Assembly: GCA_947631205.1 (NCBI GenBank)
Contig: CANRKL010000001.1
Coordinates: 4,802-68,801, forward strand
Direction of reading: 5' to 3'
From: an uncultured Bacilli bacterium
Lineage (GTDB): Bacteria > Bacillota_I > Bacilli_A > RF39 > UBA660
Length of the DNA stretch: 64,000 bases
How positions within the stretch are numbered: the first letter of the stretch is position 1; each line of letters opens with the position of its first letter. Position numbers and translations under genes: made by a program. Under the pieces are notes generated by a model, which worked only from the letters and a program-made list of their open reading frames with translations, ran no database searches and had not been told where the DNA came from. Below are positions 1,335-60,915 of this stretch, piece by piece.

Positions 1335-2933
1335 TTGGGGGGGGGGTTATTAAATAAGAAAATAGTAATCATACTACTAATTCTTACAATAACCATAACA
1401 ATAGGAGGAAGTTATGCCTTTTGGCAAATAACAAAAAGTCAAACAGGAGATAATGTGATAACTTCAGGGTGTGTAGACTTAACTATAGATAATCAAACAA
1501 ATAATATACAACTTAATAATGCTTATCCCACAGAAGATAGTGAAGGACAAAATTTAGACCCATTTATATTTACAGTAACCAATCATTGTAATGTTAAAAT
1601 GGATTATGAGATAGGATTAGAAACGTTAAGTGATACAAATTTAGAAAGTAAATATGTTAAAGTATTAATAAATGAACAAGGAAAAACTGGTAGTTCTAAA
1701 TTATTAAGTACATATGAAAATGAAAGTAAAACTATAATAGATGGAGCTAAAGAAGGAAGAATACTCTTAGAAGGAAAATTAGAACCGACAACAGATAATA
1801 ATAATCCTAGTAAAAAAGATTATGAACTAAGACTATGGTTAGATTATGACGCGGATAAAGGAGCAATGAGTAAAACATTTAGAAGTAAGATAGTATTAAG
1901 TGGAGTAGAAAATACACCCAAACGTTCTGATGAAGTATGTGATACAAATCCTGATAGTGTAGATTGTAAGTTATTAAAAAATGATGATAAAAATGAAGAA
2001 GCTCAATTAGCATATGATGGAACAGAAGAAAATAATTTAAGATATATTGGAGCAACTCCAAATAATTATATTGATATTGGGGATAGGGATTTAGATGGAC
2101 AACCAATCTTATGGCGAATAATAGGAGTTATGAATAATATGACGATTGTAGGTGATGATGATAGTGAAAGTGCATGGCAAAGTTTAGTAAAAATAATCAG
2201 AGCAGATAGCATAGGGAATTGGAGTTGGGACTCATCAGCAAGTGGAGTAAACTATGGATATGGGGTAAACGAATGGAGTGAGTCTGATTTAATGACAACC
2301 TTAAACTCTGGAGCATACTGGAGCAAGACCAGTGGACAATGTTACAGTGGTTCAAATGATAGTCAGAAAGCATGCGATTTTAGTAGTATAGGACTAACTA
2401 AGGAAGTAAGAAACAAAATAGCTAAAGTAAGATGGAATACAGGAACAATGCCAGATGAATATTCAAGTAATACGAGTAAAACAACAGCAAGTTATATGTA
2501 TCAAGGAGAGAGAAGCGATAATCACAGAAAAAAATTTTGCAGTAGTGGAAGTTACTGTAATGACATAGTAGAACGAACATCAACATGGGATGGATATATA
2601 GGACTAATGTATCCATCTGACTATGGATATGCGGTCGGCGGAGAGGTACGAAATAGTTGCTTAGCAAAAACAATGTACAACTGGAATGGAAGTAGTCCAG
2701 ATTGTAAAGGAAATGATTGGTTATTACCAACGTCATCTTATGAATGGACCCTAACTCCTGACCCTGATTCGTCGTATGCTACTTATGTGTTCAATGTGTA
2801 TTCTTCTGGATACTTGAATGAAAGTAATGTTGGACCTACTTATTCCGTTCGTCCTGTCGCTTATCTAACGCCTGGTACACAGATTGTAGTCGGTGAGGGA
2901 ACAAAAGAAAATCCGCATACCTTAAAAGCGTAA
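1335..2933 (+). CDS. TasA/camelysin-like secreted protein, 532 aa, with a SipW-type signal peptide and a ~330-aa Cys-containing C-terminal domain of unknown function. Relative to the RBS-associated ATG at 1319, the reading frame is broken by a poly-G(10) tract.
   Basis: The N-terminus has an n-region, an h-region, then SYAFWQ (compare the TasA signal-peptide motif AxFxD). Next comes VITSGCVDLTID, resembling TasA ASGTLDLSA. It is a paralog of 47926-49524, 16358-16966 and 4509-5072. Confidence 0.6.
   Translation: MGGGLLNKKIVIILLILTITITIGGSYAFWQITKSQTGDNVITSGCVDLTIDNQTNNIQLNNAYPTEDSEGQNLDPFIFTVTNHCNVKMDYEIGLETLSDTNLESKYVKVLINEQGKTGSSKLLSTYENESKTIIDGAKEGRILLEGKLEPTTDNNNPSKKDYELRLWLDYDADKGAMSKTFRSKIVLSGVENTPKRSDEVCDTNPDSVDCKLLKNDDKNEEAQLAYDGTEENNLRYIGATPNNYIDIGDRDLDGQPILWRIIGVMNNMTIVGDDDSESAWQSLVKIIRADSIGNWSWDSSASGVNYGYGVNEWSESDLMTTLNSGAYWSKTSGQCYSGSNDSQKACDFSSIGLTKEVRNKIAKVRWNTGTMPDEYSSNTSKTTASYMYQGERSDNHRKKFCSSGSYCNDIVERTSTWDGYIGLMYPSDYGYAVGGEVRNSCLAKTMYNWNGSSPDCKGNDWLLPTSSYEWTLTPDPDSSYATYVFNVYSSGYLNESNVGPTYSVRPVAYLTPGTQIVVGEGTKENPHTLKA
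1337..1346 (+). repeat. Homopolymeric G(10) tract lying between the RBS-ATG (1319) and the long tasA-like ORF.
   Basis: Counted directly as 10 consecutive G. The ATG at 1319 has an AGGAG RBS 6 nt upstream but, with 10 G, reaches a stop after 12 codons. With 9 or 12 G it reads in frame through the 532-aa ORF. Confidence 0.9.
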
Positions 2934-4446: not shown

Positions 4447-4508
4447 ATTTAAGAGATTGAAATAAGTTAAATAATTTGTTAAAATGGTTATAGAATAGAG
4501 GAATGAAT

Positions 4509-5072
4509 ATGGATAAAAAAATTTTTTGGTCAGTTATTGTTGTAACTGTTAGTGCTTTAGTTATATTACTTTCTTTAACTTATAATACCACTTTTTCTTA
4601 TTTTACAACTACCATTGATACTTCTGGTTATAGTGGTGCTGGTAATGGTAAGACTGGACTTACAGCTGGTGAAATTACTGGAGATGTAGTATTAAGTGGG
4701 AGTACTGATATTTTTGGTGATAAAATATATCCAGGGACTAGCCTAAATTACACTTTTACTATATCAAATCCTAATACAATAGATGTGCCAGTAAATCTAT
4801 ATTGGACTAATGTTACAAATAGTTTTATTAATAAAAATGATTTACAAATAACTTTAAAAGATAGCCATCAAAAAGAAATTATTACAGCAGCGAATAACAA
4901 AACGTTTCCTAAAAGCAATAATGAGGACTTAGTTACGAATTTAGTAGTTCCTAAAGGTGGTTCAACGACATATACATTAACAATAAATTACATAAATACT
5001 AACCAAAATCAATTTGGTGATATGGGTAAAGCATTTAAAGGAACGATAAATATTAAGAGTTATGAAGAATAA
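4509..5072 (+). CDS. Short TasA/camelysin-like secreted protein with a SipW-cognate-type signal peptide.
   Basis: The signal peptide is followed by FSYFTTT (compare TasA A-F-x-D). The segment GDKIYPGTSLNYTFTISNPN resembles TasA PGDKLTKDFQFENNG. Start chosen at the second ATG (4509; the track ORF starts at 4503), which is 7 nt from a GAGG RBS. Confidence 0.6.
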   Translation: MDKKIFWSVIVVTVSALVILLSLTYNTTFSYFTTTIDTSGYSGAGNGKTGLTAGEITGDVVLSGSTDIFGDKIYPGTSLNYTFTISNPNTIDVPVNLYWTNVTNSFINKNDLQITLKDSHQKEIITAANNKTFPKSNNEDLVTNLVVPKGGSTTYTLTINYINTNQNQFGDMGKAFKGTINIKSYEE

Positions 5073-12520: not shown

Positions 12521-13488
12521 TGTTAATAAAAGAATTTAAAAGAGAATTAGACAAATACAATAAAAAAGAAATTATTGAAATAGCTTCTTTCTTATATAAA
12601 AAAATTCCTAAGAAACTTAAAGAAGAAAGTGAAATAGATAATTATATAATTGATATTAATAATAAAAATGTTAAAAGTAGTGAAGAAGAACTAACAATGG
12701 AAGATTTACAAAAAAAATTAGATTACTTTTTAGAGTGTGTTGATAATGGTTATTATGCTTCTCCTAACCGAATTATTCCCAAAAGTGCCCGAAGCAAATG
12801 GAGGTTTCAAGTTAAAAAATATTATAAAATGCTAAATAAATATCCTATAGATTCTTCTGATGGACTAATAGCAACTTATTATTTAATTCAATTGTTTAAA
12901 AAATTAAGTATTGGAACAGGAAGGTTACTTTTTTCTTCACGGAATACTTTTGGGGCTGTCGGAGTAAATCAAACATTATTTTATGAAAATATAGTTAAAC
13001 GCATTTTATACCAAGTTAAAAATGAAAATAATATTAAAAAATGTATAAGTTTACTATATGTTCCAAGGGACATTGATGAATTTGAAAGTTTCATGTATGA
13101 TGTTTTAATATCATCATTAAATACTAACGAAGAAAGACAAATAGCTATTAAATTATTAAGTGAAAATGTAGATTTAAATACTAATAAAATGGTTAAAGTT
13201 AAAACATATCAAGATGAATATAATTTAAAAACACAAATAAATAGCGATACTTATGGAATAGTTTCTCTATATTTTGATATGGGAAAAATAGAAGAAGGAT
13301 TAAAATATTATCATAAACATAGTATAGAAAATAATGAAGAAGAAAAAGAATACATTATTTTGGAAATATTAGAGATAAGAGAAGAGTATGAATGGTGGAT
13401 AAAAGAATATGATTCTCATAAAATTGTTTATCGAAAGTCCTTAAAAGAAAATTATATAAAATTTAAAAAATTGTTAGAAAATGAATAA
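12520..13488 (+). CDS. Hypothetical protein, start-stop coupled to queA.
   Basis: The ORF is 322 aa and no motif was recognised. Its ATG overlaps the queA stop (ATAATG). Confidence 0.5.
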   Translation: MLIKEFKRELDKYNKKEIIEIASFLYKKIPKKLKEESEIDNYIIDINNKNVKSSEEELTMEDLQKKLDYFLECVDNGYYASPNRIIPKSARSKWRFQVKKYYKMLNKYPIDSSDGLIATYYLIQLFKKLSIGTGRLLFSSRNTFGAVGVNQTLFYENIVKRILYQVKNENNIKKCISLLYVPRDIDEFESFMYDVLISSLNTNEERQIAIKLLSENVDLNTNKMVKVKTYQDEYNLKTQINSDTYGIVSLYFDMGKIEEGLKYYHKHSIENNEEEKEYIILEILEIREEYEWWIKEYDSHKIVYRKSLKENYIKFKKLLENE

Positions 13489-13547
13489 TTTTAGTTTATC
13501 TTTTTAGATAAGATATGTTACAATGTAAAGCAGAAAGTAGAGTATAT

Positions 13548-14417
13548 ATGGAAAATAAAGAATGTCTAAAATTGTTAATCCAAAAATATCCTAATTTGAG
13601 TGCTTTAAAAGTTAGCAATCATTTTTTGACATGGCAAGATAAAACAGTAAACTTAGAAATGATTAATGTATATTCCTTTTTAAAAGCTAATAAAAATTTA
13701 GTTTCTAATTTAAGTAAAATAACTAGTGAAGACTTTATAAATATATTAAATATTCATCATAAATCTCTTGAACTTCAAAATGACTTAAGTCAAATTAAAC
13801 TTTTTGAAAATAATTTTTTAATTAAAAATATTCGTCTAATATCTCGCTTTGCCGAAGATGGATTATTAAAAAATTATATCTATATAATAGATGTTGAAGA
13901 TAAATCATATATTATTTTAAATAATTCTACGGTTGATATAAATAAAATATATGATTATTTAGCTAAGAAAAATTTTGGCAATGTATTAATTAATAACTTG
14001 ATTAAGGAAATTAATAATGAAGAAGACTTAAAAAAATCCTTATCTATAGATAAATATTTTGCCATGCTTAAAAGTGATAATCTAACTGTAGAAGAGTTAA
14101 ATAAAATGCAAGAATTAGAAAGTTTATTAAAAGATATGTATTATTACCAAGATTGCCTGCTTTCAAGTAACTATCAATTAGTCGAGTATTATTTTAATAC
14201 ATTAGACCAAATAAATAAAGAGTATTATAAGACTGATAATGAAATAAATGCCTTAAATAGAGTGTATAATAATTTATCAAGATTAAAACTAGAAAGACCA
14301 TTAGAACTAACTAGAAAAAAATCTCAAAACAGCGGTTTTTTAAATATTGTATTACTCATATTATTAGTTATAATTTTAACAATTAGTTTATGTTGTTGGT
14401 TATGGAGGAGCAAATGA
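13548..14417 (+). CDS. Hypothetical tail-anchored membrane protein.
   Basis: There is a C-terminal hydrophobic helix (LLILLVIILTISLCCWLW). The start was set at the second ATG because TGTTACAAT at 13516-13524 looks like an extended -10 that overlaps the first ATG. Confidence 0.45.
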   Translation: MENKECLKLLIQKYPNLSALKVSNHFLTWQDKTVNLEMINVYSFLKANKNLVSNLSKITSEDFINILNIHHKSLELQNDLSQIKLFENNFLIKNIRLISRFAEDGLLKNYIYIIDVEDKSYIILNNSTVDINKIYDYLAKKNFGNVLINNLIKEINNEEDLKKSLSIDKYFAMLKSDNLTVEELNKMQELESLLKDMYYYQDCLLSSNYQLVEYYFNTLDQINKEYYKTDNEINALNRVYNNLSRLKLERPLELTRKKSQNSGFLNIVLLILLVIILTISLCCWLWRSK

Positions 14418-16357: not shown

Positions 16358-16966
16358 ATGGAAAAAGAAAATAAATCAAATGAAAGTATTAAAAATGTAA
16401 CCATAGGAATAATTGGAGTCATTGCTTTAGTAATAACAACTGTAGGTATTACTTATGCAGTATGGACATCTAATGCCTCTCAAGTAACTCAAAATGCTAT
16501 TACTGTTGGTTGTGTTAATGTAACCTTAGCTGATGAAAGTGATGACATAACAATTAGTGAAGCTTATCCTATTAGTGATGGACAAGGAAAACAGCTTAAG
16601 CCTTACAAATTTACTGTAAAAAATAATTGTAAGTTTAGTGCAACTTATAAAGTAACCTTAGAAAAGTTAAGTGGTTCAAATTTAGACCCAAAATATGTAA
16701 AAGTCTTATTAAGTAATCAAGGGGAAGCAACAACTAATTTAGAAGCCAAAGCATTAATAACTTCGAATTATCCATCATCAGAGCCATATGTTACCGCTGG
16801 AGCCACAGCTGGTTTTCAGTTATTAACAAATCAAACATTAGAAGCAAGTGCTACCAAAGCTTATGATTTACGTTTATGGCTTGATACTTCTGCTCCATCA
16901 TCAATTGGTAATCAAGTATTTAATTCTAAAATTGTTGTTAAAGCTGTCCCAACTAATCAAAAATAA
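16358..16966 (+). CDS. Short TasA/camelysin-like secreted protein with a SipW-cognate-type signal peptide.
   Basis: The TM is followed by TYAVWTSNAS, then ITVGCVNVTL, AYPISDGQGKQLKP and YDLRLWLD. These motifs are shared with the other three paralogs. Confidence 0.6.
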   Translation: MEKENKSNESIKNVTIGIIGVIALVITTVGITYAVWTSNASQVTQNAITVGCVNVTLADESDDITISEAYPISDGQGKQLKPYKFTVKNNCKFSATYKVTLEKLSGSNLDPKYVKVLLSNQGEATTNLEAKALITSNYPSSEPYVTAGATAGFQLLTNQTLEASATKAYDLRLWLDTSAPSSIGNQVFNSKIVVKAVPTNQK

Positions 16967-17644: not shown

Positions 17645-17887
17645 GTGAATCTTTATCAAACTATGCAAAAATTTTTATTAGATAAAAATTATTATTTAGA
17701 TATATGGGATACTTATATTCATGTCTATAATTTTATTGATATTGAAACATTAAATGAAAAATTAATTGTTCTAAATATGGAAAATTTTAAATTAGAAATA
17801 ACAGGTGAAGATTTTCGTGTTTTAAAACTAACTAAAAAAGAAATTTTAATTGAAGGCATCTTAAACAATGTGAGGATAAATAGATGA
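17645..17887 (+). CDS. yqfC: Sporulation protein YqfC.
   Basis: The LEITGEDFRVLKLTKKEILIEGILNNVRI pattern matches the YqfC family, and the yqfC-yqfD synteny is preserved. Confidence 0.7.
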   Translation: MNLYQTMQKFLLDKNYYLDIWDTYIHVYNFIDIETLNEKLIVLNMENFKLEITGEDFRVLKLTKKEILIEGILNNVRINR

Positions 17888-19002
17888 ATTATTTATGGTT
17901 AAAAATTAATAAAAAGTATAAAAATCGTCTCTTAATTAAATGTTATAAGAAAAAAATTACAGTATATGATACCAAAGAAGATAATAGTTTTATATATCTT
18001 AAAATTAGTAGTGAGGACTATAAAACATTTCAAAAATCAATAATATTTAAATACCAAGTTATTGGAGGGTGTGGTCCTAATAAAATTAAAAGTATTTTAA
18101 AAAAATACCATATCTTTTTCTTTTCTCTAATAGTTGTTTTCATTATTTTCTTTTTTCTTACCCATATAATGACTAAAGTAATTGTTATTCATTCTAATAA
18201 AGAAATAAGAGAACTAGTTACAAAATCTTTAAAAGAAAAAGGAATTAAAGAAAATAGTTTTAAAAAAAGCTATCAAGAAATTCAAAAAATTAAAGAAGAA
18301 ATATTAAATCTTTATCCAACTAAACTTGAATGGTTAGAAATAGAAGTAAAAGGAATGAATTATATTGTACGAGTAGAAGAAAGAAAAATAAAAGAAGAAG
18401 AAGTAGAAAAAGATAGATGTAATATAATTGCTACCAAAGATGCCATAATAAAAAAAATAATTTATTCAAAAGGAGAAGCTATTGTTGAAGCTAATGATTA
18501 TGTTAAAAAAGGTGATATTTTAATATCTGGAGTTTTAAAAAAAGATGAAGAAGAAAAAGGAGTAGTATGCGCAAGTGGAAAAGTATTAGGAGAAGTTTGG
18601 TATAAAATAACTTTAAATATTCCTAAAGTAAAAGAAATAACAGAACCTACTGGTAAAAAAAGATGGAATTTAAAACTTAGCAATAATACATATAATGATT
18701 TAATATTTAAAAGTAGACTAGATAATTATCAAACAGAAGAACACCATTTATTTACTCTATTTGGAAGTACTTTATCTTTTGTAGTCCAAAAAGAAATTAC
18801 AAAAAAAACAGTTACACTTTCTAATGAAGAATTAAAACAAATTGCCGAAGATGAAATTAAAGATAAACTAAATATTAAAGATGATGAAGATAAAGAAATA
18901 ATTGATAAAAAAATTTTAACTGAAGAAATTAATGATGATAATTTAACTATGGAGTTTTTTGTGGTCGTCTTAGAAAAAATTAGTCAAAGTATTGAATTTT
19001 AA
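17884..19002 (+). CDS. yqfD: Sporulation protein YqfD-like (stage IV).
   Basis: It has the expected size and a single TM near residues 75-95. It is translationally coupled after yqfC and lies in the yqfCD-ybeY-era-recO synteny. Confidence 0.6.
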   Translation: MNYLWLKINKKYKNRLLIKCYKKKITVYDTKEDNSFIYLKISSEDYKTFQKSIIFKYQVIGGCGPNKIKSILKKYHIFFFSLIVVFIIFFFLTHIMTKVIVIHSNKEIRELVTKSLKEKGIKENSFKKSYQEIQKIKEEILNLYPTKLEWLEIEVKGMNYIVRVEERKIKEEEVEKDRCNIIATKDAIIKKIIYSKGEAIVEANDYVKKGDILISGVLKKDEEEKGVVCASGKVLGEVWYKITLNIPKVKEITEPTGKKRWNLKLSNNTYNDLIFKSRLDNYQTEEHHLFTLFGSTLSFVVQKEITKKTVTLSNEELKQIAEDEIKDKLNIKDDEDKEIIDKKILTEEINDDNLTMEFFVVVLEKISQSIEF

Positions 19003-21970: not shown

Positions 21971-22957
21971 ATGATTAATGAAAATGAAAAAAATGAATAT
22001 TTGTTAAATGATAAAGTAGTAAAAAAATTATTTACAAGTAGTAAAGTTGGAAATGAACTAATGCTTACGATAACAAGTTTGATAACAGGAATATCCCTAG
22101 AAAATTTAAAAAGAGACTTTGAACTCATTCACCCAGATATTGGCGTAAATAAAAATATTATAAATAGTGAAGCAGATGTAGCTTTTGAAAACCAAGAAGG
22201 AATATTTTCTTTTGAGTTTAATTATACTCCTTATAGAGGACTAACTGAGAAAAGCATGAGTTATGTATGCCAGTTTTATCTAAGACAAATAAATCATAAA
22301 GAAGATTATAAAAAACTAAAGAAAGTATACTCTATTAATGTCAATAATTTTGATTATTTTAAATTAAATAGATTTGTATATATAAGTGAAATGAGGGAAA
22401 GAAAAAGTGGATTATCAAGAAATGTTGGAATATATTATATAGATATAAATCTGGACTATTTAAGAAAAATAGGTTATGATAAAGATAACAAAAGTTGTTT
22501 AGAGAAAATATTATACATGTTTGTGTGTAATGACCTAGATGAGTTAAAAGAAATATATAAGGGTGATGAGCTAATGAGTAAAGTAATCAAAGAAGCAGAA
22601 TTAATAGTTAAAGATTTAGATTTATTAATGTATTATGATAAGAAAAAATTAGATGAAGAATGTTCTTATTATAATGGACAAGTTGATGGTTTTAATTCTG
22701 GAGTTGAAAAGGGAATTGACATTGGAATACAGCAACTAGCCAAAAAAATGTTAGATAAAAAAATTGATATAGAAACTATTCAAGAAGTCACAGGTTTAAG
22801 TGAAAAAGAAATAAAAGAGTTAGATAAAAATGATATAACTACATTTGTAGAAGAAAGAAAAAAAGAATTAAAAAAACAAATAGGAGAAGAAATAACTAAA
22901 TCTACTACCTTATCTGAAGAAGAAAAAGATTGGTTAAAAGAAAAACATGATTTATAA
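21971..22957 (+). CDS. Rpn/YhgA-like PD-(D/E)XK nuclease family protein (recombination-promoting nuclease / putative transposase family).
   Basis: The N-terminal PDDEXK_2-like region includes ..DVAFENQEGIFSFEF. A characteristic C-terminal helix motif reads KGIDIGIQQLAKKMLDKKIDIETIQEVTGLSEKEIKEL. Confidence 0.6.
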   Translation: MINENEKNEYLLNDKVVKKLFTSSKVGNELMLTITSLITGISLENLKRDFELIHPDIGVNKNIINSEADVAFENQEGIFSFEFNYTPYRGLTEKSMSYVCQFYLRQINHKEDYKKLKKVYSINVNNFDYFKLNRFVYISEMRERKSGLSRNVGIYYIDINLDYLRKIGYDKDNKSCLEKILYMFVCNDLDELKEIYKGDELMSKVIKEAELIVKDLDLLMYYDKKKLDEECSYYNGQVDGFNSGVEKGIDIGIQQLAKKMLDKKIDIETIQEVTGLSEKEIKELDKNDITTFVEERKKELKKQIGEEITKSTTLSEEEKDWLKEKHDL

Positions 22958-23072
22958 AAATAGATTTTTTGAAGGAAAATGCTACCAATAATTATTAATG
23001 CCAAGTAACTTTTAATTGTCATCTTTCTTTTTTTTTGCTATAATTTTTAAAGAATAGGAAAGTGGGTTAGAC

Positions 23073-23834
23073 ATGAAAAAGAGTATTGCAATATTTTCAA
23101 CTAAAGGTGGAGTAGGGAAAACAGTTTTCACTCTTAATCTAGCAGGAATATATGAAACTTTAGGTAAAAAAGTATTAATTATTGATTATGATTTAACTAA
23201 TGGTGGAATTGCTTTATCCCTTAATAAAGAATTTAATAAAACAATCCATGATTATGCTTATGACATTTTTGCTAATCAAAAAAAGAGTTTAAAAGAATAC
23301 ACAACTAAATATGATGAATATATTGATTTTATAGCTAGCCCTAAAGACCCTAGATTAGTAAGTCAAATAGATAACTATGCAATTATTTCATTAATAAATG
23401 AAGCTAGTCACAATTATGATGTTATACTAATTGATACAAATCATGTTTTAACCGCGTCCAATTTAGTTTTACTTGATGGAGTAGATGAGATTTTGTTTTT
23501 AGCAACCAATGACCCAATTGATTTAAAAAATCTTAAAAATCTTTTAGTTATTTTCAAAAATAATCAAAAAACAAACTATAAAATTTTACTAAACGATTCT
23601 TATAATCCTTATAAAAATTATTTTTCATTATATGATATTAAAAATATTATTAAAGCTAATATCGATTATACTTTAACTAACAACTTTTTTGTTAAAAATA
23701 TTGACCAATACATTATGAATGGAGAAATCTTAACTTTACAAAAAGATGCTCCTAAAGTATTTGACAAAGATTATGCTAATCTCCTTAAATTAGCGGTTGA
23801 TTATATGGAAAAGGATGATAATAATGGCAAATAA
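23073..23834 (+). CDS. ParA/MinD-superfamily ATPase, CpaE/TadZ-like.
   Basis: It carries the deviant Walker A STKGGVGKT. It lies immediately upstream of, and overlaps, a CpaF-like gene. Confidence 0.65.
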   Translation: MKKSIAIFSTKGGVGKTVFTLNLAGIYETLGKKVLIIDYDLTNGGIALSLNKEFNKTIHDYAYDIFANQKKSLKEYTTKYDEYIDFIASPKDPRLVSQIDNYAIISLINEASHNYDVILIDTNHVLTASNLVLLDGVDEILFLATNDPIDLKNLKNLLVIFKNNQKTNYKILLNDSYNPYKNYFSLYDIKNIIKANIDYTLTNNFFVKNIDQYIMNGEILTLQKDAPKVFDKDYANLLKLAVDYMEKDDNNGK

Positions 23835-25107
23835 AAAATTAATAGAAATATTTGGAATGGATAAAGAAAAGAATAGCAATAAAACTAGTTATACTTTCCC
23901 CAAAGAAGAACTCCTAGAAGAATTACGAAAAAAAATAATTAATATCCTTTTAAGTGATAGTAGTAAAAAAATAGATGAAGGAATTAAAGAAGCTACTGAA
24001 GGATTAGAACTAACCAACATGGAATTAAACTACTTATCTAATTTAATCGAAAATGAATTACTTGGACAAGGCCCATTATTTTCTGTCCTAAAAGATGAAC
24101 TAGTTAAAACTATTATGATAAATGGTAAAGATGAAGTCTATATTGAAACTAATAATCAAATTATTAAAGATGATTCAATTAAGTTTATTGATGAATCTCA
24201 TATTATTAGAACAATTACTAATCTTTTAAAAGAAAGTAACCAAAATCTTAATTTAGATGAAAAAATAATCGATACCAGACTAGATGATGGGACAAGAATT
24301 AATGGAATTTTGCCACCCCTAGCTAAAAAAGGCCCAGTCTTTACTATTCATAAGTTTCAAAAAAATATCAATACGATGGAAGATTATGTTAGACTTGGTT
24401 CCCTAACAACAGATATGGCTAACTTTTTAGAAGCTACCCTTAAAGCTAAAGCTAACATTTTAATAACGGGACTTACTGGTTCTGGTGCAACATCTATACT
24501 AAGAACCTTAGGAAATTCCTTAGATGATGATAAAAGAATAATTACTTTAGAAGAAATTAGTGAATTAAATTTAATTAAGCCTAACTTAGTATCTTTAGAA
24601 TTACATAACAATCATATCCCCATAAAAGAAATCTTAAAAAAAGTTATCCGAATGAATCCCAATTATCTTTTAGTTAATGATTTATTTGCAAGTGACTTCC
24701 TGAGTTTTTTAGAAATAATGAATTTAGGAGTCGATGGTATAGTTGCAACCATGCACGCTAGAGATATCAAAGATGCTTTAAAAAGAATAGAATTAGAGCC
24801 ATCAATTAAAGGCTTAAATATTCCCCTTAATATTATGCGAGAAAATATTGTCAATGCCCTTAATATTATCATTAATGTTGAAAAAATGAACGACAATAAA
24901 CAAAAAATTACCTCTATTAGTGAATTAAAATATCTAAATGGAGAAATTAAAATTGAAGAAATATTTTCTTTTCAAAAAAAATCAATTAATCAAAATGAAG
25001 AAGTGATAGGAGAATATACTTTTTATCCTAAAAACTGTCAAATTGTCAATATATTTAGAAAAAAAGGTATTCATGATATAGATTATCTATTTAATAATAA
25101 AAAATAA
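23797..25107 (+). CDS. CpaF/TadA-family secretion ATPase homolog with degenerate catalytic motifs; predicted pseudo-ATPase.
   Basis: The CpaF-diagnostic segments IMINGKDEVYIE and DTRLDDGTRINGILPPLAKKGPVFTIHKF are present. However, the Walker A is GLTGSGATS (the lysine is replaced by Ala). The GEVRG catalytic Glu segment is replaced by NDLFA. The His-box TGH is replaced by LGV. Confidence 0.7.
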   Translation: MIIWKRMIIMANKKLIEIFGMDKEKNSNKTSYTFPKEELLEELRKKIINILLSDSSKKIDEGIKEATEGLELTNMELNYLSNLIENELLGQGPLFSVLKDELVKTIMINGKDEVYIETNNQIIKDDSIKFIDESHIIRTITNLLKESNQNLNLDEKIIDTRLDDGTRINGILPPLAKKGPVFTIHKFQKNINTMEDYVRLGSLTTDMANFLEATLKAKANILITGLTGSGATSILRTLGNSLDDDKRIITLEEISELNLIKPNLVSLELHNNHIPIKEILKKVIRMNPNYLLVNDLFASDFLSFLEIMNLGVDGIVATMHARDIKDALKRIELEPSIKGLNIPLNIMRENIVNALNIIINVEKMNDNKQKITSISELKYLNGEIKIEEIFSFQKKSINQNEEVIGEYTFYPKNCQIVNIFRKKGIHDIDYLFNNKK

Positions 25108-25121
25108 AAGGAAGTGATATT

Positions 25122-25814
25122 GTGCAAACAATTATTATAACTCAAATAATATCTAGTTTTGTTTTAGTTATTTTATTTGTTATTTTAATTAAACAAAAAA
25201 GAATTAAAAGTTTTGATGAAAGATTTGCAAATTTTACACTTAAAGAAAATCCTTTAATAAATCCTAAAAGTGATGCTTTAATAACTATTAAAGAAGAAGA
25301 TTTACACTCTTTTCTAACCGTACTATATAATCATTTAAATAATGGCTTATCAGTTACCTCATCCCTTAAAAAAATGCAAAATGATAATCTTAGTTTTATT
25401 GCCGATATTTTATTAGAAAAATTAAATGAAGGCTTAAATATTTCCATGGCTTTTACTTATTTAGCTAAAAAAACAAATTTATCACTTTTATCCGACATCA
25501 GTCATTTTTTAACAGTTACAGAAAAAATTAATGGTAAAGAAGAACTAGCTTTAATGACCATTATTCAAAATATTAAAGATAAAATCTATCAAAACAAAGA
25601 AAAAGACATTTTAAGAAGCATTATTAAATTTGTTTCCTATATAATTTTATTTATACCTATTTTAACACTAGGAATTATTATTCTAATTAATAATACTTTC
25701 TTTTTTCAAATTTTAACTACTTTAAAAGGAATAATTTACTTTATTTTAATAATCTTAATTTATCTTATTTATTTATTAATAGTAAAATTTATATTGGGAG
25801 TGAGTAAGTTATGA
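25122..25814 (+). CDS. TadB/GspF-like inner-membrane platform protein (tentative).
   Basis: It has an N-terminal TM, a cytoplasmic helical domain, then two or three TM helices. Its position after a CpaF-like gene also fits. Confidence 0.4.
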   Translation: MQTIIITQIISSFVLVILFVILIKQKRIKSFDERFANFTLKENPLINPKSDALITIKEEDLHSFLTVLYNHLNNGLSVTSSLKKMQNDNLSFIADILLEKLNEGLNISMAFTYLAKKTNLSLLSDISHFLTVTEKINGKEELALMTIIQNIKDKIYQNKEKDILRSIIKFVSYIILFIPILTLGIIILINNTFFFQILTTLKGIIYFILIILIYLIYLLIVKFILGVSKL

Positions 25815-26437
25815 AGAAAGCCAAAGAAAGATTAAATGCCAAGCAAAATCTTATCCATTTAAAAATTAAAGTAAATACATTTATTTATCTTCGTTTAATG
25901 ATTATTTTAGTCTTGCTAATTTTTTGTGCATCTCTAAAAAAACCTGGAATTTTTATTTTTATTATATTAGGTTCAATTATTTATTTTGGAAGTGAAGCTA
26001 TATTCTATGATTATCCTCTTTTTACTAAAAGAAAAAAAGAGTATGATGAGTTTATAGAGTTTCTTTCCTTCTTAAAACTAGAGCCAAATTTAAAAGAAAA
26101 TGTAATAGACAGTATTATAAATGTCTTAAATGAAGTAAATTATTCTTTCAGCGATACTTTACGGAGTATTGCCCAAAAAAGAAAATATGGCGAAAAAGAA
26201 AAAATAGATAATTTTTTTATTAATCAAGATATTAAAAATGGATTAGAACTTATTTTAAGTAATGATTTTCTAAAAAATCCTTATCTTATTGATGAAGTAA
26301 GTAATAAAATAAGCCAAAATGAGCTATTAAGAACTAAAAAACAAATGGCTTCTATTCCCATCATTCTATTTATTGTCTCCTTAATATTTACTTTAACTAT
26401 TAGTTACTTATTTTACTATATTAGTACTATTTTATAA
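25811..26437 (+). CDS. TadC-like membrane protein (tentative).
   Basis: Its topology is similar to the preceding gene, to which it is translationally coupled. Confidence 0.35.
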   Translation: MKKAKERLNAKQNLIHLKIKVNTFIYLRLMIILVLLIFCASLKKPGIFIFIILGSIIYFGSEAIFYDYPLFTKRKKEYDEFIEFLSFLKLEPNLKENVIDSIINVLNEVNYSFSDTLRSIAQKRKYGEKEKIDNFFINQDIKNGLELILSNDFLKNPYLIDEVSNKISQNELLRTKKQMASIPIILFIVSLIFTLTISYLFYYISTIL

Positions 26438-26484: not shown

Positions 26485-26512
26485 TTGACAAGTGCTAATT
26501 TTTTAGTATAAT
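26485..26512 (+). promoter_or_regulatory. Sigma-A-type promoter of the hrcA operon.
   Basis: The -35 is TTGACA (26485-26490), followed by a 16-bp spacer and the -10 TATAAT (26507-26512). Confidence 0.55.
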
Positions 26513-26516
26513 TAAT

Positions 26517-26543
26517 TTAGCACTTGAATATAATAGGTGCTAG
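26517..26543 (+). promoter_or_regulatory. CIRCE-like HrcA operator.
   Basis: The sequence is TTAGCACTT-N9-AGGTGCTAG, against the consensus TTAGCACTC-N9-GAGTGCTAA. An extra half-site AGTGCTAA lies at 26491-26498 overlapping the promoter. Confidence 0.6.
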
Positions 26544-30031: not shown

Positions 30032-31834
30032 ATGGTTACTTATCAAAACCGCAGTGAAGTACCAGAAAAATACAAATGGGATTTAACAAGTTTTTTCACT
30101 GATGAAGAAGATTATCAAAAAAATTTTAAATGTGCTAAAGAAAAAATTCATAACTTAGAGAAATATAAAGGATGTACTAAAAACCCTCAAAAATTATTTG
30201 AATTTTTAGAAAGTGAAATTGCAACAATTGCTTTATGTGAAGATTTATATGTTTATTCATTTTTAATAAATGACCAAGAATTAGGAGTATCTAAAAGCAT
30301 TGAAAGAATGAATGAAGCTAGTAATTTATATGGCACATTAGATGTAACATTAAGTTTCTTTGCTCCAGAGCTATTAAAACTTAGTCAAGATGAATATGAA
30401 AAACTATTTAAAGACAATGCTAAATTACTTGAATATAAAGCTTTATTAGATGATATTTATAGAGAAAAAGACCATATATTAAATGAACAAGAAGAAAGTA
30501 TCATCTCAACTTTAGTAAATTCTATGAACCATTATGAAGAAATATCATCAACAATGCTAAATAAAGAACATAATTATGGAAAAATAAAGATTAATGAAGA
30601 AGAAATAACTATCTCTTCTACCAACTATCGTAAATTAATGAAAAACGAAGATAAAAAAATAAGACAAAAAGTCTATAATTCCTATCAAAAAGTATTAAGT
30701 AACTATGCTGATACAAGTGCGTCCTTATTAAATTCTTATGTAAATATGTGTCAAAAATTAGCTTTACTTCATCATTATGAAAGCTCTTGGGAAGAAAAAT
30801 TATTTGATTTAAAATTAAGTAATAAAGTATTTCAAACATTAGTTACAACTGTTGAAAAAAATTTGTCAGTACTACATGACTTTTATAAATTAAAAGCCCA
30901 AGTTTTACAAACTAAAAAATTAAAAATGAGCGACTTATTTTTAAACATGACCAATAATTCTAAAGAATACACAATTGAAGATGCCCAAGATATTATCAGA
31001 AAATCTTTAAAACCTTTAGGAAGTGATTATTTATCTAAATATGAAAAAATAATTACTAATCATTACATAGATTATTGTCAATATAAAGGTAAATGTAGTG
31101 GAGGATATTCTTGTAATACCATGAGACAAGACTCCAGAATTCTTCTAAGCTTTAATGGTGAATTAGATTCAGTCTCTACAATCGCCCATGAAGCAGGACA
31201 CAATGTTCACAGCCAGTATTTAAAAGAAAATAATCCAATTTATTATGCTAATGCCCCTCACGTTGTCTGTGAAGTTGCCTCTTTAACCAATGAATTTTTA
31301 TTATCTTATTATATTGAAAAAAATAGTCATAATAAAAATGAACGTTTGAATGGTATTGAAAATATCTTAAATGTTATGATATCTAACCTTTTTGGAGCTG
31401 TAAGAGAAGGGGTATTAGAACAACATATGTATGATACAGTAAAAAACGAAAAAACTATTACTAAAGAATACTTAAATAACCTAGCTTTAAAGTCCTTAAA
31501 AAAGTATTATGGACCAAGTGTAGTTACAGATAAATATGCTCAAAATAACTGGATTACTAGAAGTCATTATTATATGAATTTCTATCTTTATAGTTATGCT
31601 ATATGTGTTACAGCCGCTTCTAATTTAGCTTTAGAAATATTTAATGGAAATAAAGAAGTTACTAATAAATATATCGAATTTTTAAAAACTGGTTCTTCTA
31701 AAGACCCTATGGAAATATTTAATATTTTAGGTATTAATTTAGAAGATGAAAAATTTTATGAAACAGCAATTAATAATTTTGCTAGTTTAGTAAAGAAATA
31801 TAAAGAAATATTTGAAGGTGATGAAGATGAATAA
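30032..31834 (+). CDS. pepF: Oligoendopeptidase F (M3B family).
   Basis: The HEAGH zinc motif ([11 protein letters not shown]) and M3B-family architecture are present. It is unusually located between dnaK and dnaJ. Confidence 0.85.
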
Positions 31835-37358: not shown

Positions 37359-37385
37359 AAACCCCATAATAGGGATTTTTTTAAT
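37359..37385. terminator. Bidirectional terminator between convergent genes.
   Basis: AAAAACCC-cataata-GGGATTTTTTT. Confidence 0.4.
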
Positions 37386-38349
37386 TTAATAATTCATCGC
37401 CTTTACTTAACATACTACTTATAAAAATAGCATATCCTGAAAGAGGATTATCGACAATTACATGAGTAACTGCTCCAATAATTTTATTATTTTGAACGAT
37501 AGGTGAACCACTCATTCCCTGAATAATTCCCCCTGATTGTTTAATTAAATCATTATCTATTATTTCAAAAGTCATATTTTTAGTATCATTATAATCTTGA
37601 ATTGAAGTAATTTTTATATCAAATTCTTGTTTATCTTGCCCTTTTAAAACCGTATATATTTTCGCATCTCCAATTTTTATTTCATCATTACTAGCAACTT
37701 CTATTTTATTTCCACTTATATCATCTTCCCACTTTCCATAAATACCTTTTGAAGTATTTTCTACAATATTACCATATACATGATTATAGTTAAAGAAAGC
37801 ATTTTTTTCACCAGCTTCACCAGTAACACTTTTCTTAATACTAGTAACAGTACTTTCATATATCTTACCTGTTTTAACTTCTACCATTTTAGTAGATTTA
37901 CTCTCTAAAATCTCATGTCCTAAAGCCCCATAAATTTTCGTTTCTGGGTCAATATAAGTAAGAGTTCCAATTCCATTTATATTATCTTTAACATATAAAC
38001 CTGTCTTATATATTCCATCAACTTGCTCAAGTTCCATAGCAATATCTATTTCTTCATTATTTCTCTTAACTGTTAAATTAACATTTTTATCAAGATTTTT
38101 TTCAATTTCCTTAGTTAAATCATCTATCGTATTTACAGTAAAACCATTAACTTTAATAATTTCATCACCAATCTTTATTTCAGGATTTCCCTTTAAAGTT
38201 TTCCCATTAACATTATAAAATCCAATAACTAATATACCATTAGTATCAATATGAATTCCAATATTCTCGCCACCTAAAATAACTTCATTTGAATAAGCTA
38301 AAACATTAATAGGTAACAATAGAATAAATAATATCAATAACTTTTTCAT
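37381..38349 (-). CDS. spoIVB: SpoIVB-like S55 serine peptidase with a PDZ domain.
   Basis: It has a signal peptide, a PDZ-like region, and a C-terminal GGIIQGMSGSPIV (catalytic Ser in GxSGSPI) typical of peptidase S55. Confidence 0.7.
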   Translation of the reverse strand: MKKLLILFILLLPINVLAYSNEVILGGENIGIHIDTNGILVIGFYNVNGKTLKGNPEIKIGDEIIKVNGFTVNTIDDLTKEIEKNLDKNVNLTVKRNNEEIDIAMELEQVDGIYKTGLYVKDNINGIGTLTYIDPETKIYGALGHEILESKSTKMVEVKTGKIYESTVTSIKKSVTGEAGEKNAFFNYNHVYGNIVENTSKGIYGKWEDDISGNKIEVASNDEIKIGDAKIYTVLKGQDKQEFDIKITSIQDYNDTKNMTFEIIDNDLIKQSGGIIQGMSGSPIVQNNKIIGAVTHVIVDNPLSGYAIFISSMLSKGDELLN

Positions 38350-47925: not shown

Positions 47926-49524
47926 ATGAAAAGTAAAAGAAATATAATAATTGTTTTAGTCTTAAGTTTAATAAGCATAATTACAATAGGAATAAGTTAT
48001 GCCTTTTGGCAAGTGACAAAAACTCAGATAGAAGAAAATGTTATAACAACAGGGTGTGTTGATGTAAAAATAGAAAATGAATTAAATCAAATAAATTTAG
48101 GAGAAGCCTATCCTATAGAAGACAGTGATGGATTAGAATTAAAACCATTTACATTTACCATTACTAATAAATGTAATGTATATACTGATTATGAGATAGG
48201 ATTAGAAATGTTAAGTAATACAAATTTAGAAAGTAAATATGTTAAAGTATTAATAAATCAAGTGGGTATAAAAAAGTCACCTAAATTACTCAGTAATTAC
48301 GAAAATGAAAGTAAAACCATAATAGATGGAGCTAAAGAAGGAAGAATACTCTTAAAAGGAAAATTAGACCCAACAACAGATGATAATAAACCTAGTAAAA
48401 AAGATTATGAATTAAGATTATGGTTAGATAATGATTCCCCAAAGTCAATAATGAATCAAACATTTACAAGTAAGATAGTAATTAATGGAAGTCAAGGAAG
48501 TGAACCAAAACCATCATATGAAATATGTAATCAAAATGAAGAAAGCGCGTCTTGCACAATTGCAAAACTAGCAGATGAAGATACAACTAATTTAATTTAT
48601 GATGATACAGATGACAAAAATTTAAGATATATAGGAAAAGAAGTAAATAATTATATTGATATAGGAGATAGAGATTCTGATAATAAACCAATCTTATGGC
48701 AAATTATCGGAATTATGAATAATGTATTAGTAGTCGATGATGAGAATAATGAACATCAAGAAAGTTTAGTAAAAATAATTAGAGCAGAAGATATAGGAAT
48801 ATTAAGCTGGGACACTTCAGCAAATGAAGTAAACGATGGACGTGGTGTAAATGAGTGGAGCGAGGCTGATATAATGTCCAACTTAAATAATGGAGCATAC
48901 TGGAACAAGAAAAGTGGACAATGTTACAATGGTTACAACGATGCTAAAGTAACATGTGATTTTAGTAGTACAGGACTAACTCCTACCGTCAAAGAAAATA
49001 TTGCTAAAGTAAGATGGAATACTGGGACTTTTGAATCATACGATACATCAGAGTGGTTAGCAAATGCGACATACAAAGCCGAACGAAGTGAAAATATTGG
49101 AAAAATATGTAACGGTGGAAACGATTGTAACGATAAAGTAGAAAGGCATACAACCTGGGATGGTTATATAGGACTTATGTATCCATCTGATTATATGTAT
49201 GCCGTTGGAGGTGATGTCCGAAATAATTGTTTAACAACAAGTATGGCCAACTGGAATAATAGCAATCCCAATTGTAAAGGTAATGATTGGTTATATATTT
49301 CTGAAAAAATACTATGGACCATGACTCCTGTTCCTAATTCATCATATGCTTATTATGTGTTCTTTGTCATGCCAGAAGGGCATGTGCTAAGTGGTAGTGC
49401 TCTTGCTGCCCGTGGTATTCGTCCAACCGCCTATTTAAAAGAAAATCTTAAAATTGCCGATAATCCTAATCCAGACAAAACATATGGTTCTAAAGAAAAT
49501 CCATTTCAACTAAAAAACAATTAA
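47926..49524 (+). CDS. TasA/camelysin-like secreted protein, 532 aa, paralog of 1335-2933.
   Basis: The signal peptide is followed by SYAFWQVTKTQ, VITTGCVDVKIEN and YELRLWLD. The C-terminal domain is shared with paralog 1, including TWDGYIGLMYPSDYMYAVGGDVRNNC...CKGNDWL...GIRPTAYL. Confidence 0.65.
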   Translation: MKSKRNIIIVLVLSLISIITIGISYAFWQVTKTQIEENVITTGCVDVKIENELNQINLGEAYPIEDSDGLELKPFTFTITNKCNVYTDYEIGLEMLSNTNLESKYVKVLINQVGIKKSPKLLSNYENESKTIIDGAKEGRILLKGKLDPTTDDNKPSKKDYELRLWLDNDSPKSIMNQTFTSKIVINGSQGSEPKPSYEICNQNEESASCTIAKLADEDTTNLIYDDTDDKNLRYIGKEVNNYIDIGDRDSDNKPILWQIIGIMNNVLVVDDENNEHQESLVKIIRAEDIGILSWDTSANEVNDGRGVNEWSEADIMSNLNNGAYWNKKSGQCYNGYNDAKVTCDFSSTGLTPTVKENIAKVRWNTGTFESYDTSEWLANATYKAERSENIGKICNGGNDCNDKVERHTTWDGYIGLMYPSDYMYAVGGDVRNNCLTTSMANWNNSNPNCKGNDWLYISEKILWTMTPVPNSSYAYYVFFVMPEGHVLSGSALAARGIRPTAYLKENLKIADNPNPDKTYGSKENPFQLKNN

Positions 49525-50431: not shown

Positions 50432-52615
50432 CTAAAAATCGCTACCAATAAATCTTGGAGGTGGTGGATTGTCAACAGCTGGAGTATTTATATTTTCTGT
50501 TTCTAATGTATCTAAAGTATTTCCATCGGCTTTAGGTTCTGTTTGACTTACTTGATTATTACTAGGGCTAGCAAAAGGATTAAAGAAACTATTTGAAGGA
50601 TTATTTACCACTTCTTGTTCACTTATATTAGGTATTTCCATTGGATTTATATTAGAAACTATATTTTCATTATTATTCCCACCTACTTCGCTAGGAATAT
50701 TGTTTGAAGCATTAAGATTATTAGAAACATCTAAATTATTATTAAAGAATGAATTATTTTGTATGTTATCTTGACTATTAATATTATCAGGACTATTTAA
50801 ATCATTATTATCTATATTATTATCACTTGCTACTTGCCCATCATTATAATTTATATCTTTATTCCAACAATTTTTAACATTACAGTTAGAAGAATATGGT
50901 GGTGGATTAGGCATATCCATGCGAATAATCATTGGTATTTTAAAAGCCCCACCAAAGCCTACACAACTACCAGGTTGTAATGTTTTCTGCTTTTCAATAA
51001 CATCAGCTGAAATATTCGGTAACATCTCTTCAATATATTTTAAATCTTTAGGATGGGTCATTTTAAATATTAAGAAGTTAGATACTTGAGCAATTACTGT
51101 ATCACTAATTTCAACTGGTCTTTGAGAGATTATCCCAAGTAAAGTCCCATATTTTCGACCTTCTTTAGCTATTCTATCAAAAATATTATATCCTAATAAA
51201 AATGTATCGTTGTCATTTTGAATATAACGATGGGCTTCTTCTAATACTAAATGACATGGCATACTTGCTCTATCTTTTAATGACTTAGTATAATCAAAAA
51301 TAATTCTTGCGATAATTTTAACAATTACTTTTGCATAAACATCATCAACATCTTCAAGATTTATATTAATTATTTGAGCTTTTTTTCCATTATACATAAT
51401 TAAATTTTGAATAAACTCCGAAGGTGTTGTATATCCTTTATTTGTAAAATAACTTCCTACTTTAGTATTTAAAATAGAACTTATTCTAACTTTAAGAATA
51501 ATTGCATCATCATATACTTTACTATTATTTTGGAATCCCTCACTTATAAGAGTAAACTCTAAAGCTTTAGAAAAATCTAATATAGAATATGAATAAACTT
51601 CTGGTTCTTGCATACTTTCTAATTCTTCATCAATATGTTTTAAGATATAATCAGTTATTAAAACGGATTCTCCAAAATTACCATTAGAATCTATTTCAAA
51701 ACATTCAGAAAAACTTCTAGAATATCCAAGACCCGCAATACGAGAATCAAAATTAAAATCTTTAGTATGACAAGTTTCAATTATCGTAAATATTTCATTT
51801 TTTTTATGAGCTGTTGTTTGGTTACTAAATAAAATAGCTATTAGGGCTTTGGCAATTAAATGGTTCTTATAACGTTCACTTTCTTCAGTATTTTGACTAA
51901 ATATTTTAGCAAGTCTAATAGTTCTTTCAATAATTGGTAATTGACTATGATTACTTGCCTGTAATAATAAAGCCATATCATCTAATTTTAATAGGCAAAC
52001 AGGTATTTCAAGTGGTACATCACTTTCTTCTTGGACATTTGAAGTTATAAATTTATATTGATAATTTGGATTATATTGATTAATACTTTGAAAAGCATTT
52101 TTATATTCTCCATAAGCATCAAATAAGAAAAAATTAGCATTTAGTAAACTAGTTTTATCACTACCAAAAACATTTTGAATTATTCTTGATACTCCATGCG
52201 TTTTACCAGAACCAGAGTTTCCACAAATAAAGAAATGATTAGAAAAAAAGTCATTTATAAATGGATAAACTATATGGTCTTTATATATAGCGCTTGTTCC
52301 TAATTTAAAAGTTGATTCATTATCATCACCAATTAATAATCCTAACTCTTCATCATTAATAATTCTTATTTCGCTAGTAAGAAGTGGTTTTCTAATAACA
52401 CCATTAACATATCTACCATTAACATATTCCCCTAAAAAATTAATTTTAATAGTTTCCGGATTTATTTCTGATATTTCTCCTAATATTCTTTGATTTGGAG
52501 CTTCAAAAACAACGTGCATATTCATTAAATCAGTTGTCTCATCAGCTCTTAAAGTGTTTTCTATATGCGCAGCCGCTTCACTAATATACTTAATTTTTCC
52601 AAACATTTTAATCAC
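50432..52615 (-). CDS. HerA/DUF87-like P-loop ATPase (FtsK-HerA superfamily) with a ~190-aa Asn/Ser-rich disordered C-terminal tail ending in a PPPP motif.
   Basis: Walker A reads GNSGSGKTHGV and Walker B reads LVLEEAHRY, followed by AKEGRKYG...ISQRP, which is typical of HerA/DUF87. The low-complexity tail is NNIDNN...NPPPPRFIGSDF. Confidence 0.6.
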   Translation of the reverse strand: MIKMFGKIKYISEAAAHIENTLRADETTDLMNMHVVFEAPNQRILGEISEINPETIKINFLGEYVNGRYVNGVIRKPLLTSEIRIINDEELGLLIGDDNESTFKLGTSAIYKDHIVYPFINDFFSNHFFICGNSGSGKTHGVSRIIQNVFGSDKTSLLNANFFLFDAYGEYKNAFQSINQYNPNYQYKFITSNVQEESDVPLEIPVCLLKLDDMALLLQASNHSQLPIIERTIRLAKIFSQNTEESERYKNHLIAKALIAILFSNQTTAHKKNEIFTIIETCHTKDFNFDSRIAGLGYSRSFSECFEIDSNGNFGESVLITDYILKHIDEELESMQEPEVYSYSILDFSKALEFTLISEGFQNNSKVYDDAIILKVRISSILNTKVGSYFTNKGYTTPSEFIQNLIMYNGKKAQIININLEDVDDVYAKVIVKIIARIIFDYTKSLKDRASMPCHLVLEEAHRYIQNDNDTFLLGYNIFDRIAKEGRKYGTLLGIISQRPVEISDTVIAQVSNFLIFKMTHPKDLKYIEEMLPNISADVIEKQKTLQPGSCVGFGGAFKIPMIIRMDMPNPPPYSSNCNVKNCWNKDINYNDGQVASDNNIDNNDLNSPDNINSQDNIQNNSFFNNNLDVSNNLNASNNIPSEVGGNNNENIVSNINPMEIPNISEQEVVNNPSNSFFNPFASPSNNQVSQTEPKADGNTLDTLETENINTPAVDNPPPPRFIGSDF

Positions 52616-60552: not shown

Positions 60553-60915
60553 TTATTTTATTTCTAAAGCTTCATCTTTCATATAATATAAAATAATTGA
60601 TAATAAACTATTAACTAAATAAAAAGGCCAAAGATTAGAAAAATTAATAATTTTTAAATTATATAAAGAATAAATTAGAAAAAAAATTGATAAATTAATA
60701 AGACTTTTAATTAAATAACTAATAACATTAGAACTTTTTTTAACATTTCTATTTAATATATATAAAATAATTGTTAAAAAAGTATTAAGAAAAGGTAAAC
60801 GATAAAGATATATATCTAAAATAAGACTAAATATTAATAAATATTTTAAATCTTTTTGTCTTACATCTGTTAAAAAAGTAATTACTCCCAAATTTAAATA
60901 TCTAATCATTTTCAT
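60553..60915 (-). CDS. mreD: Rod shape-determining protein MreD (by position and topology).
   Basis: It is a small polytopic membrane protein that directly follows mreC and overlaps it by 14 bp. Confidence 0.55.
   Translation of the reverse strand: MKMIRYLNLGVITFLTDVRQKDLKYLLIFSLILDIYLYRLPFLNTFLTIILYILNRNVKKSSNVISYLIKSLINLSIFFLIYSLYNLKIINFSNLWPFYLVNSLLSIILYYMKDEALEIK

Follow-up and report, generated by a model that had tools for sequence, protein, structure and literature searches.

A pilin-less, Tad-derived operon with a degenerate CpaF motor conserved in a small clade of uncultured Bacilli

Introduction

The CpaF protein (TadA) of Caulobacter crescentus is the bifunctional motor of the Tad pilus, and ATPases of the secretion superfamily are regarded as obligatory engines of type IV filaments. 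CpaE homologues that bear the NCBIfam name Ssd have been linked to septation in actinobacteria. Here we analyzed a Tad-like locus at positions 23073-26437 of a 64-kb stretch of contig CANRKL010000001.1, which comes from an uncultured Bacilli bacterium; this whole stretch is called the window below. A previous reading of the sequence alone had described four coupled Tad/Cpa-like genes with a CpaF homologue predicted to be catalytically dead and with no pilin gene nearby. We find that this is a Tad-derived operon that is pilin-less at the locus, encodes a motor with a degenerate catalytic site and is conserved across a small clade. In our literature search we came across no account of degenerate CpaF proteins, nor of Tad loci from these lineages, and we know of no precedent for such loci.

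Results

Locus organization and gene assignment

The window has a GC content of ~25%. Four open reading frames (ORFs) occupy 23073-26437 on the forward strand, in the order cpaE/tadZ-like, cpaF-like, tadB-like and tadC-like. The cpaE and cpaF genes overlap by 11 nt, cpaF and tadB are separated by 14 nt, and tadB and tadC overlap by 4 nt (ATGA). The gene order and coupling read from the sequence are thus supported by the ORF coordinates and by the Pfam and hhalign assignments given here.

The first gene (23073-23834) encodes a 253-amino-acid ParA/MinD-type ATPase, assigned by Pfam, NCBIfam and a motif check. It matches the Pfam families AAA_31, CbiA and ParA (AAA_31, 3.8e-15), lacks an N-terminal receiver-like domain and has an intact deviant Walker A (KGGVGKT) and Walker B (VILIDT). 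The CpaE motifs are intact in all loci compared, and of the four proteins CpaE shows the strongest conservation, with 50-57% identity to pilin-less and canonical relatives alike.

The second gene (23824-25107) encodes a CpaF/TadA-like protein of 427 amino acids. The mechanically called ORF begins at TTG 23797; the better supported start is ATG 23824, which has an AAGGA ribosome-binding site and agrees with the public gene call P0001 (427 amino acids). The protein matches Pfam T2SSE (1.6e-26). Its top NCBIfam matches are TadA-family, VirB11/TrbB and FlaI models, all under their cut-offs: the best is TIGR03819 (169.6 bits against a cut-off of 373; 1e-49), and VirB11 and TrbB reach 141.5 against 250 and 131.4 against 304.6 bits.

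The remaining two genes encode platform proteins, both shortened. The TadB-like protein (25122-25814; 230 amino acids) was assigned by alignment and a Pfam T2SSF match (1.2e-6). It is ~100 residues shorter than its orthologs (297-335 amino acids), and the alignment shows an in-frame deletion that takes out a transmembrane hairpin. The TadC-like protein (25811-26437; 208 amino acids) gave no match in the Pfam scan and was assigned by alignment and by hhalign, in which a profile of the protein and its orthologs matched the canonical TadC profile with a probability of 99.9% (E = 2e-34). The canonical TadC proteins of relatives match T2SSF at 1e-16.

A promoter-like site with 11 of 12 consensus matches (TTGTCA-17-TATAAT with the TG extension of an extended -10 element; 23016-23044, forward strand) lies 29 nt upstream of cpaE. 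As promoter-like sites are as frequent in this region as in shuffled sequence, it is only suggestive. The operon also has ribosome-binding sites and coupled starts.

Degeneracy of the CpaF active site

The best match to the CpaF-like protein in a phmmer search of all PDB chains was Caulobacter CpaF (8RKD/9E24; E = 9e-53). We use the residue numbering of Caulobacter CpaF according to Yen et al. 2025 (PMC12019362). The phmmer and multiple alignments revealed three degenerate motifs. Walker A reads GLTGSGATS (24469-24495; canonical GGTGSGKTT), Walker B reads LLVNDLFA (24667-24690; canonical IIVGEVRG), and the His box (24724-24759) reads LGVDGIVATMHA, aligned on CpaF TGHDGSMGTLHA (canonical TGHDGS.TT.HA), with the first His gone. 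The substitutions are K287A in Walker A, G356N, E357D and R359F in the Walker B segment, H374V at the first His-box His, and R241H and R339K elsewhere. The retained residues are D215, the arginine fingers R217, R223 and R347, Walker A T288, Asp-box E308 and E312, and the second His-box His, H381 (TMHA).

The P-loop contains no Lys or Arg, and we rejected the possibility that realignment could restore the lysine: Ala occupied position K287 in the phmmer alignment to PDB, in the MAFFT alignments with 120 and 40 homologues, and in the hmmalign alignment. Two claims of the sequence-only reading, the loss of the Walker A lysine and NDLFA in place of the GEVRG segment, are therefore upheld. Its claim that the His box was lost holds for the first His and fails for the second. 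The overall prediction of a degenerate ATPase site agrees with work on the homologue, in which altered residues are essential: K287A abolishes the ATPase activity of Caulobacter CpaF (PMC12019362).

An AlphaFold2 (AF2) model of the protein had a pLDDT (predicted local distance difference test) score of 82, and its best PDB fold matches in Foldseek were CpaF and then FlaI. By this confident model, the fold is intact and the active site is not. From alignment and model, the protein has coherently lost five phosphate-contacting or catalytic residues and has kept the CpaF fold and most other conserved positions; we refer to it as a predicted pseudo-ATPase. As the arginine fingers, the Walker A Thr and the Asp-box Glu remain, it may still bind nucleotide without hydrolyzing it.

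Pilin, peptidase and second ATPase genes

We built hidden Markov models (HMMs) of Flp and TadE from the genes of relatives and searched stop-to-stop six-frame translations (segments of at least 25 amino acids, or at least 30 for the class-III signal-peptide pattern). The HMMs found no match anywhere in the 64 kb in six frames, nor did the signal-peptide pattern in any frame. In the positive control, the canonical locus L017, the same HMMs recovered the pilins at 1e-39 and 8e-38. That no pilin gene lies near the locus, as first read from the sequence, is thus confirmed across the window. No pilin genes were found in the flanks of the related loci L006, L040, L042, L044, L045, L048 and L049 either.

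No second CpaF homologue was found in the window, and a pattern-based, non-exhaustive genome scan returned no assembly with two CpaF loci. Peptidase_A24 had no match among those window membrane proteins that were scanned against Pfam, a subset of the ORFs. The prepilin peptidase is unlinked to the Tad loci of canonical relatives too, so its absence here is uninformative.

Relationship to canonical Tad operons

The ~150 nearest homologues (37-41% identity) come from gut metagenome-assembled genomes (MAGs) of uncultured 'Bacilli' or 'Tenericutes', and in them the canonical motifs are invariant. Wherever upstream sequence exists, these canonical loci have the order flp, tadE-like, tadE-like, cpaE, cpaF, tadB, tadC; the pilin genes were confirmed by Pfam (Flp 1.5e-6, TadE 8e-12). 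One canonical locus, L025, shares the upstream synteny yqfD-ybeY-era-recO with the window. Between recO and cpaE, L025 has two tadE-like genes and the window has a gene of the rpn family (21971-22957, forward strand), assigned by Pfam/NCBIfam and synteny to the PD-(D/E)XK nuclease/transposase-like Rpn proteins. This gene may be a trace of the event by which the pilin genes were removed. In another canonical locus, L033, the dnaK operon is nearby, as in the window.

The same site holds the only detected Tad operon of L025, and the window locus is therefore a positional ortholog, not an extra paralog. The synteny of housekeeping genes across species speaks against a mobile element. The Tad/Cpa derivation proposed from the sequence is borne out by the CpaF, T2SSF and TadC matches together with the L025 synteny, and on this homology and synteny we conclude that the locus is Tad-derived and, as far as gene order can tell, vertically inherited from a canonical operon.

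Relatives that share the degeneracy

Loss of the Walker A lysine is common to ~six lineages of uncultured Bacilli, with intact ORFs and 40-48% identity; most are MAGs from rabbit gut. The closest lysine-less relatives of the window protein are P0002 and P0003/P0270 (L001-L008), P0127 (L042/L043) and P0130 (L044). Among them K287 is replaced by Gly, Gly, Ser and Ser, as against Ala in the window, and all have R241H and lack R359 and H374. The L042 and L044 loci, each with a degenerate cpaF, have the gene order of the window, cpaE-cpaF-tadB-tadC-hrcA-grpE-dnaK-pepF-dnaJ-(nusB-xseA-xseB-proS). More widely, the pilin-less four-gene operon with all ORFs intact was found in at least eight related lineages, with 34-53% identity for CpaF and 20-31% for TadB and TadC.

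In a neighbor-joining tree, the lysine-less group is nested in a larger, long-branched set of CpaF proteins, in which H374 is always lost and R359, E357 and K287 are lost in varied combinations. Pilin-less four-gene operons also occur in this long-branched set, in the retrieved contigs of L040, L045 and L049. A different arrangement was seen in L046, in which CpaF is degenerate (K287R, E357K) yet two classical pilin-like genes follow directly after tadC (12944-13609 and 13578-14321), with KG/FVFIE and KG/LTIIE sites of the KG/FxxxE type.

Proteins of the lysine-less type are rare: among 5.8 billion proteins, a profile search yielded only ~five such clusters, most of which trace to a single ENA sample series and to MAGs with isolate names starting with 'Lapin' (rabbit). 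An independent assembly, L005, has 99.5% nucleotide identity to the window and the same motifs. We therefore rejected a sequencing or assembly artefact and a recent pseudogene. The latter had been named in the sequence-only reading as an alternative; ~six lineages share the losses with intact ORFs, and the ratio of non-synonymous to synonymous substitution rates (dN/dS) is ~0.15 in three of them.

In L006 (1313-1810), L042 (404-901), L044 (2302-2799) and L046 (8656-9174), a gene encoding an HD-domain protein directly precedes cpaE. We considered it as a fifth member of the operon and rejected it, as tblastn found no homologue in the window.

Selection and rate of evolution

All dN/dS values were calculated with the Nei-Gojobori (NG86) method only; between the window and its relatives dS is saturated, and those ratios are unreliable. 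The sister species L001, L006 and L008 have 85% amino acid identity and an unsaturated dS of ~0.6. Between them, dN/dS was 0.14-0.17 for the degenerate cpaF and 0.08-0.13 for cpaE. Between near-identical strains, the degenerate cpaF had values of 0.02-0.06. The window and L005 differ at 15 sites, nine non-synonymous and six synonymous (pN/pS = 0.37; one-sided p = 0.058), which is suggestive and not significant.

In a neutral simulation with the base composition of the window, 2% of sequences were still stop-free at 10% amino acid divergence and none of 300 at 20%. The window CpaF branch has accumulated ~34% amino acid divergence. At the positions that are invariant in canonical proteins (n = 103), the window protein keeps 58% and the sister proteins keep 61-78%. 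The positions lost in at least five of the six lysine-less proteins include K287, R241, R339, R359 and H374, as well as Walker A G282 and N292. All six carry R241H and a change of Gln to Lys at query position 252, and the fixation of these two replacements suggests a new constraint.

Other features of the window

The heat-shock operon lies downstream of tadC. The region upstream of hrcA (26485-26540) contains a perfect sigma-70 promoter (12 of 12 matches; TTGACA-16-TATAAT) and a CIRCE-like inverted repeat, TTAGCACTT-N9-AGGTGCTAG. As hrcA has its own promoter and repeat, the heat-shock operon appears to be transcriptionally apart from the Tad-like operon. The pepF gene (M3-family oligoendopeptidase F; 30032-31834) is located between dnaK and dnaJ, as it is in L033, L042 and L044.

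Functional annotation of 17884-19002, 37381-38349, 59168-60527 and 60902-61555 also revealed sporulation-type genes, namely YqfD (1.9e-61), a SpoIVB S55 peptidase (3.6e-71) and a pair of M50 and M23 peptidases, together with mreC. The presence of these genes suggests that the organism is walled and possibly spore-forming, though its relatives carry the public labels Tenericutes or Mycoplasma sp.

We identified a family of secreted proteins with a TasA/SipW-type N-terminal signal, in which a hydrophobic stretch is followed by G(G/I)SYAFWQ, GITYAVW or TFSYFTT. Members are encoded in the window (1335-2933, 47926-49524, 16358-16966 and 4503-5072), in L017 (6761-8167) and in L046 (14991-15533 and 16177-17676). 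They include two 532-residue paralogs, and none has a Pfam match. We rejected a tie between this family and Tad loci, since its genes are adjacent to them (for example in L017 and L046) in only 3 of ~45 loci. On the reverse strand, 50432-52615 encodes a HerA/DUF87-type ATPase (Pfam 1.3e-14) whose long C-terminal tail is of low complexity, with abundant Asn, Gln and Pro. For the four proteins of the locus, PADLOC gave only a generic P-loop match (CpaE residues 3-53 to PDC-M28B), and we rejected an anti-phage defense assignment of the locus.

Discussion

Three findings carry the description of this locus: positional orthology to canonical Tad operons, the coherent loss of catalytic residues within a preserved CpaF fold, and the recurrence of both the losses and the pilin-less gene set in related lineages. 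What the operon now does is a separate matter. We see roughly an even chance that its products form a retained pseudo-ATPase complex, derived from a Tad operon, which does something other than build pili. In the path we envisage, the flp and tadE genes upstream of cpaE would have been lost in the window lineage of low-GC gut Bacilli. The CpaF motor would have lost its ATP-hydrolysis residues and could no longer power pilin polymerization. It would persist as a non-motor ring docked on the reduced TadB/TadC membrane platform, leaving the ParA/MinD-like CpaE as the sole competent NTPase of the module. The retention of the genes suggests that the degenerate CpaF may act as a scaffold.

Several observations weigh against a retained function and are at the same time what a non-functional relic would produce. 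Under that explanation, which we consider somewhat improbable, pilin loss strongly relaxed selection on the four genes, deletion is under way, and ORFs are still intact because decay is not complete. When the window is compared with L042/L044, identity falls from 87-89% for DnaK and 79-87% for HrcA to ~50% for CpaE, 40% for CpaF, 30% for TadB and 23% for TadC. The matching dN values are 0.08-0.15 for DnaK and HrcA, 0.4 for CpaE, 0.55 for CpaF and 0.7-0.9 for TadB and TadC, the last two near saturation. From these gaps the operon evolves several times (~five) faster than its neighbors. Within the clade, degeneracy and branch length are both greatest for the window CpaF, the window TadB has lost its ~100 residues, and the pN/pS against L005 is not significantly below 1. 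In L048 (2553-4656) and L041 (9175-11775), only cpaE and the degenerate cpaF are left, which fits a stepwise decay series; tadB and tadC are absent from L048 and reduced to a 107-residue remnant in L041, and yebC follows both loci. This pair could represent more advanced decay, or could point to a role of CpaE and CpaF of their own. In canonical cpaF at equal amino acid divergence, dN/dS was 0.04-0.10 in three groups and reached ~0.19 in a fourth, and our analyses turned up nothing positive for any new function. Set against decay are the four ORFs, which are intact in at least eight lineages despite the low identities of CpaF, TadB and TadC, when neutral drift at 25% GC brings stop codons within ~10% amino acid divergence. 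The dN/dS values of the sister trio also argue against it: by these estimates, the predicted dead ATPase is under purifying selection in the sister species, relaxed roughly two-fold relative to canonical cpaF. The fixed clade-specific substitutions, a TadB deletion that keeps the reading frame and takes out one complete hairpin, and the retained coupled starts and promoter-like site point the same way.

It is also possible, but unlikely in our view, that the locus still belongs to a working filament or secretion machine. Its pilins and prepilin peptidase would then be encoded elsewhere, and its energy would come from residual, non-canonical activity of the degenerate CpaF or from another ATPase, such as a second CpaF or a ComGA/PilB-type protein. 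Such a machine is compatible with the retention of R217, R223, R347, T288 and E312, with which nucleotide may still bind, and with L046, where a similarly degenerate ATPase (K287R, E357K) is paired with two pilin-like genes. An unlinked peptidase is found with canonical loci too, and our view of this genome spans only ~64 kb. However, K287A alone kills the ATPase activity of CpaF (PMC12019362), and the window protein has further changes at E357, R359, H374 and R241. In canonical relatives the pilin genes are adjacent to the locus, and all seven pilin-less flanks that we examined lack them. The locus is moreover the positional ortholog of the canonical operon and not an accessory copy, and the pattern-based, non-exhaustive genome scan returned no assembly with two CpaF loci. 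A sporulation channel similar to SpoIIIAA/AB, or an Ssd-like cell-division module, in place of a Tad derivative is very improbable. The yqfD, SpoIVB peptidase and M50 protease genes of the window would suit the former, and the tie of the CpaE homologues named Ssd to septation in actinobacteria (an NCBIfam name) the latter. Against both stand the low scores of the respective models (15.6 against 281 bits for spore_III_AA and 21.8 against 154 for CpaE_hom_Actino/Ssd) and the nearest relatives, which are genuine Tad operons carrying Flp and TadE genes.

If a pseudo-ATPase complex has been retained, a more specific and tentative proposal is that gut Bacilli with reduced genomes turned the Tad motor into a stable, pilus-independent membrane complex that serves as a positioning, scaffolding or sensing device. 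This complex would consist of a hexameric CpaF pseudo-ATPase that may still bind nucleotide through its arginine fingers, an active ParA/MinD-type CpaE and a minimized TadB/TadC platform. It would represent a motor-to-pseudoenzyme transition within the type IV filament superfamily, and the long-branched CpaF homologues that have lost His-box, Walker B or Walker A residues would be a family of such devices. Where the pilins and the catalytic site were discarded while the ATPase, its ParA-like partner and the platform were kept under selection, these components would have a function separable from filament assembly. The full operon, the pilin-less operon with a predicted dead motor, and cpaE with the degenerate cpaF alone would also be natural stages along which to follow the dismantling or repurposing of a molecular machine as a genome shrinks. 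The locus may be a clean natural example of a secretion-ATPase pseudoenzyme kept with its partners, with decay as a plausible alternative. For annotation, the automatic label 'CpaF family protein' would wrongly imply piliation in these gut MAGs.

The sequence-only reading had proposed SpoIIIAA as a comparison for the ATPase, and this did not hold up: we rejected that identity because spore_III_AA (TIGR02858) scored 15.6 bits against a cut-off of 281.3 (E = 0.007). The actinobacterial Ssd/TadA-like 'helicase-secretion neighborhood' loci (TIGR03815, TIGR03819) resemble the window in pairing a CpaE-like with a TadA-like protein. The window proteins score far below the cut-offs of these models (169.6 against 373; 21.8 against 154, on which we rejected an Ssd identity) and come from another phylum. 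The actinobacterial ATPases are not known to us to be degenerate.

The canonical monoderm Tad operons of related uncultured Bacilli (for example L013, L017 and L025) share the core gene order and the short, receiver-less CpaE with the window. Unlike the window, they have Flp and TadE genes and invariant ATPase motifs; in the window, TadB and TadC are also reduced in length and much more divergent. Among the features of a Tad (type IVc) pilus, the window thus has the CpaF-family homologue, TadB and TadC, and a CpaE with KGGxGK[ST], and it lacks competent ATPase motifs and Flp/TadE genes at the locus. Among PDB structures, Caulobacter crescentus CpaF (8RKD, 8RJF, 9E24) is the best match to the window CpaF in both sequence and fold. 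The window protein differs from it by the replacement of K287, E357, R359, H374, R241 and R339, by having no intrinsically disordered N-terminal extension, and by having no pilin substrate at its locus. It shares with Caulobacter CpaF the three-helix bundle, the N-terminal domain and the C-terminal ATPase domain, together with the conserved Asp box, R217, R223, R347, T288 and E312.

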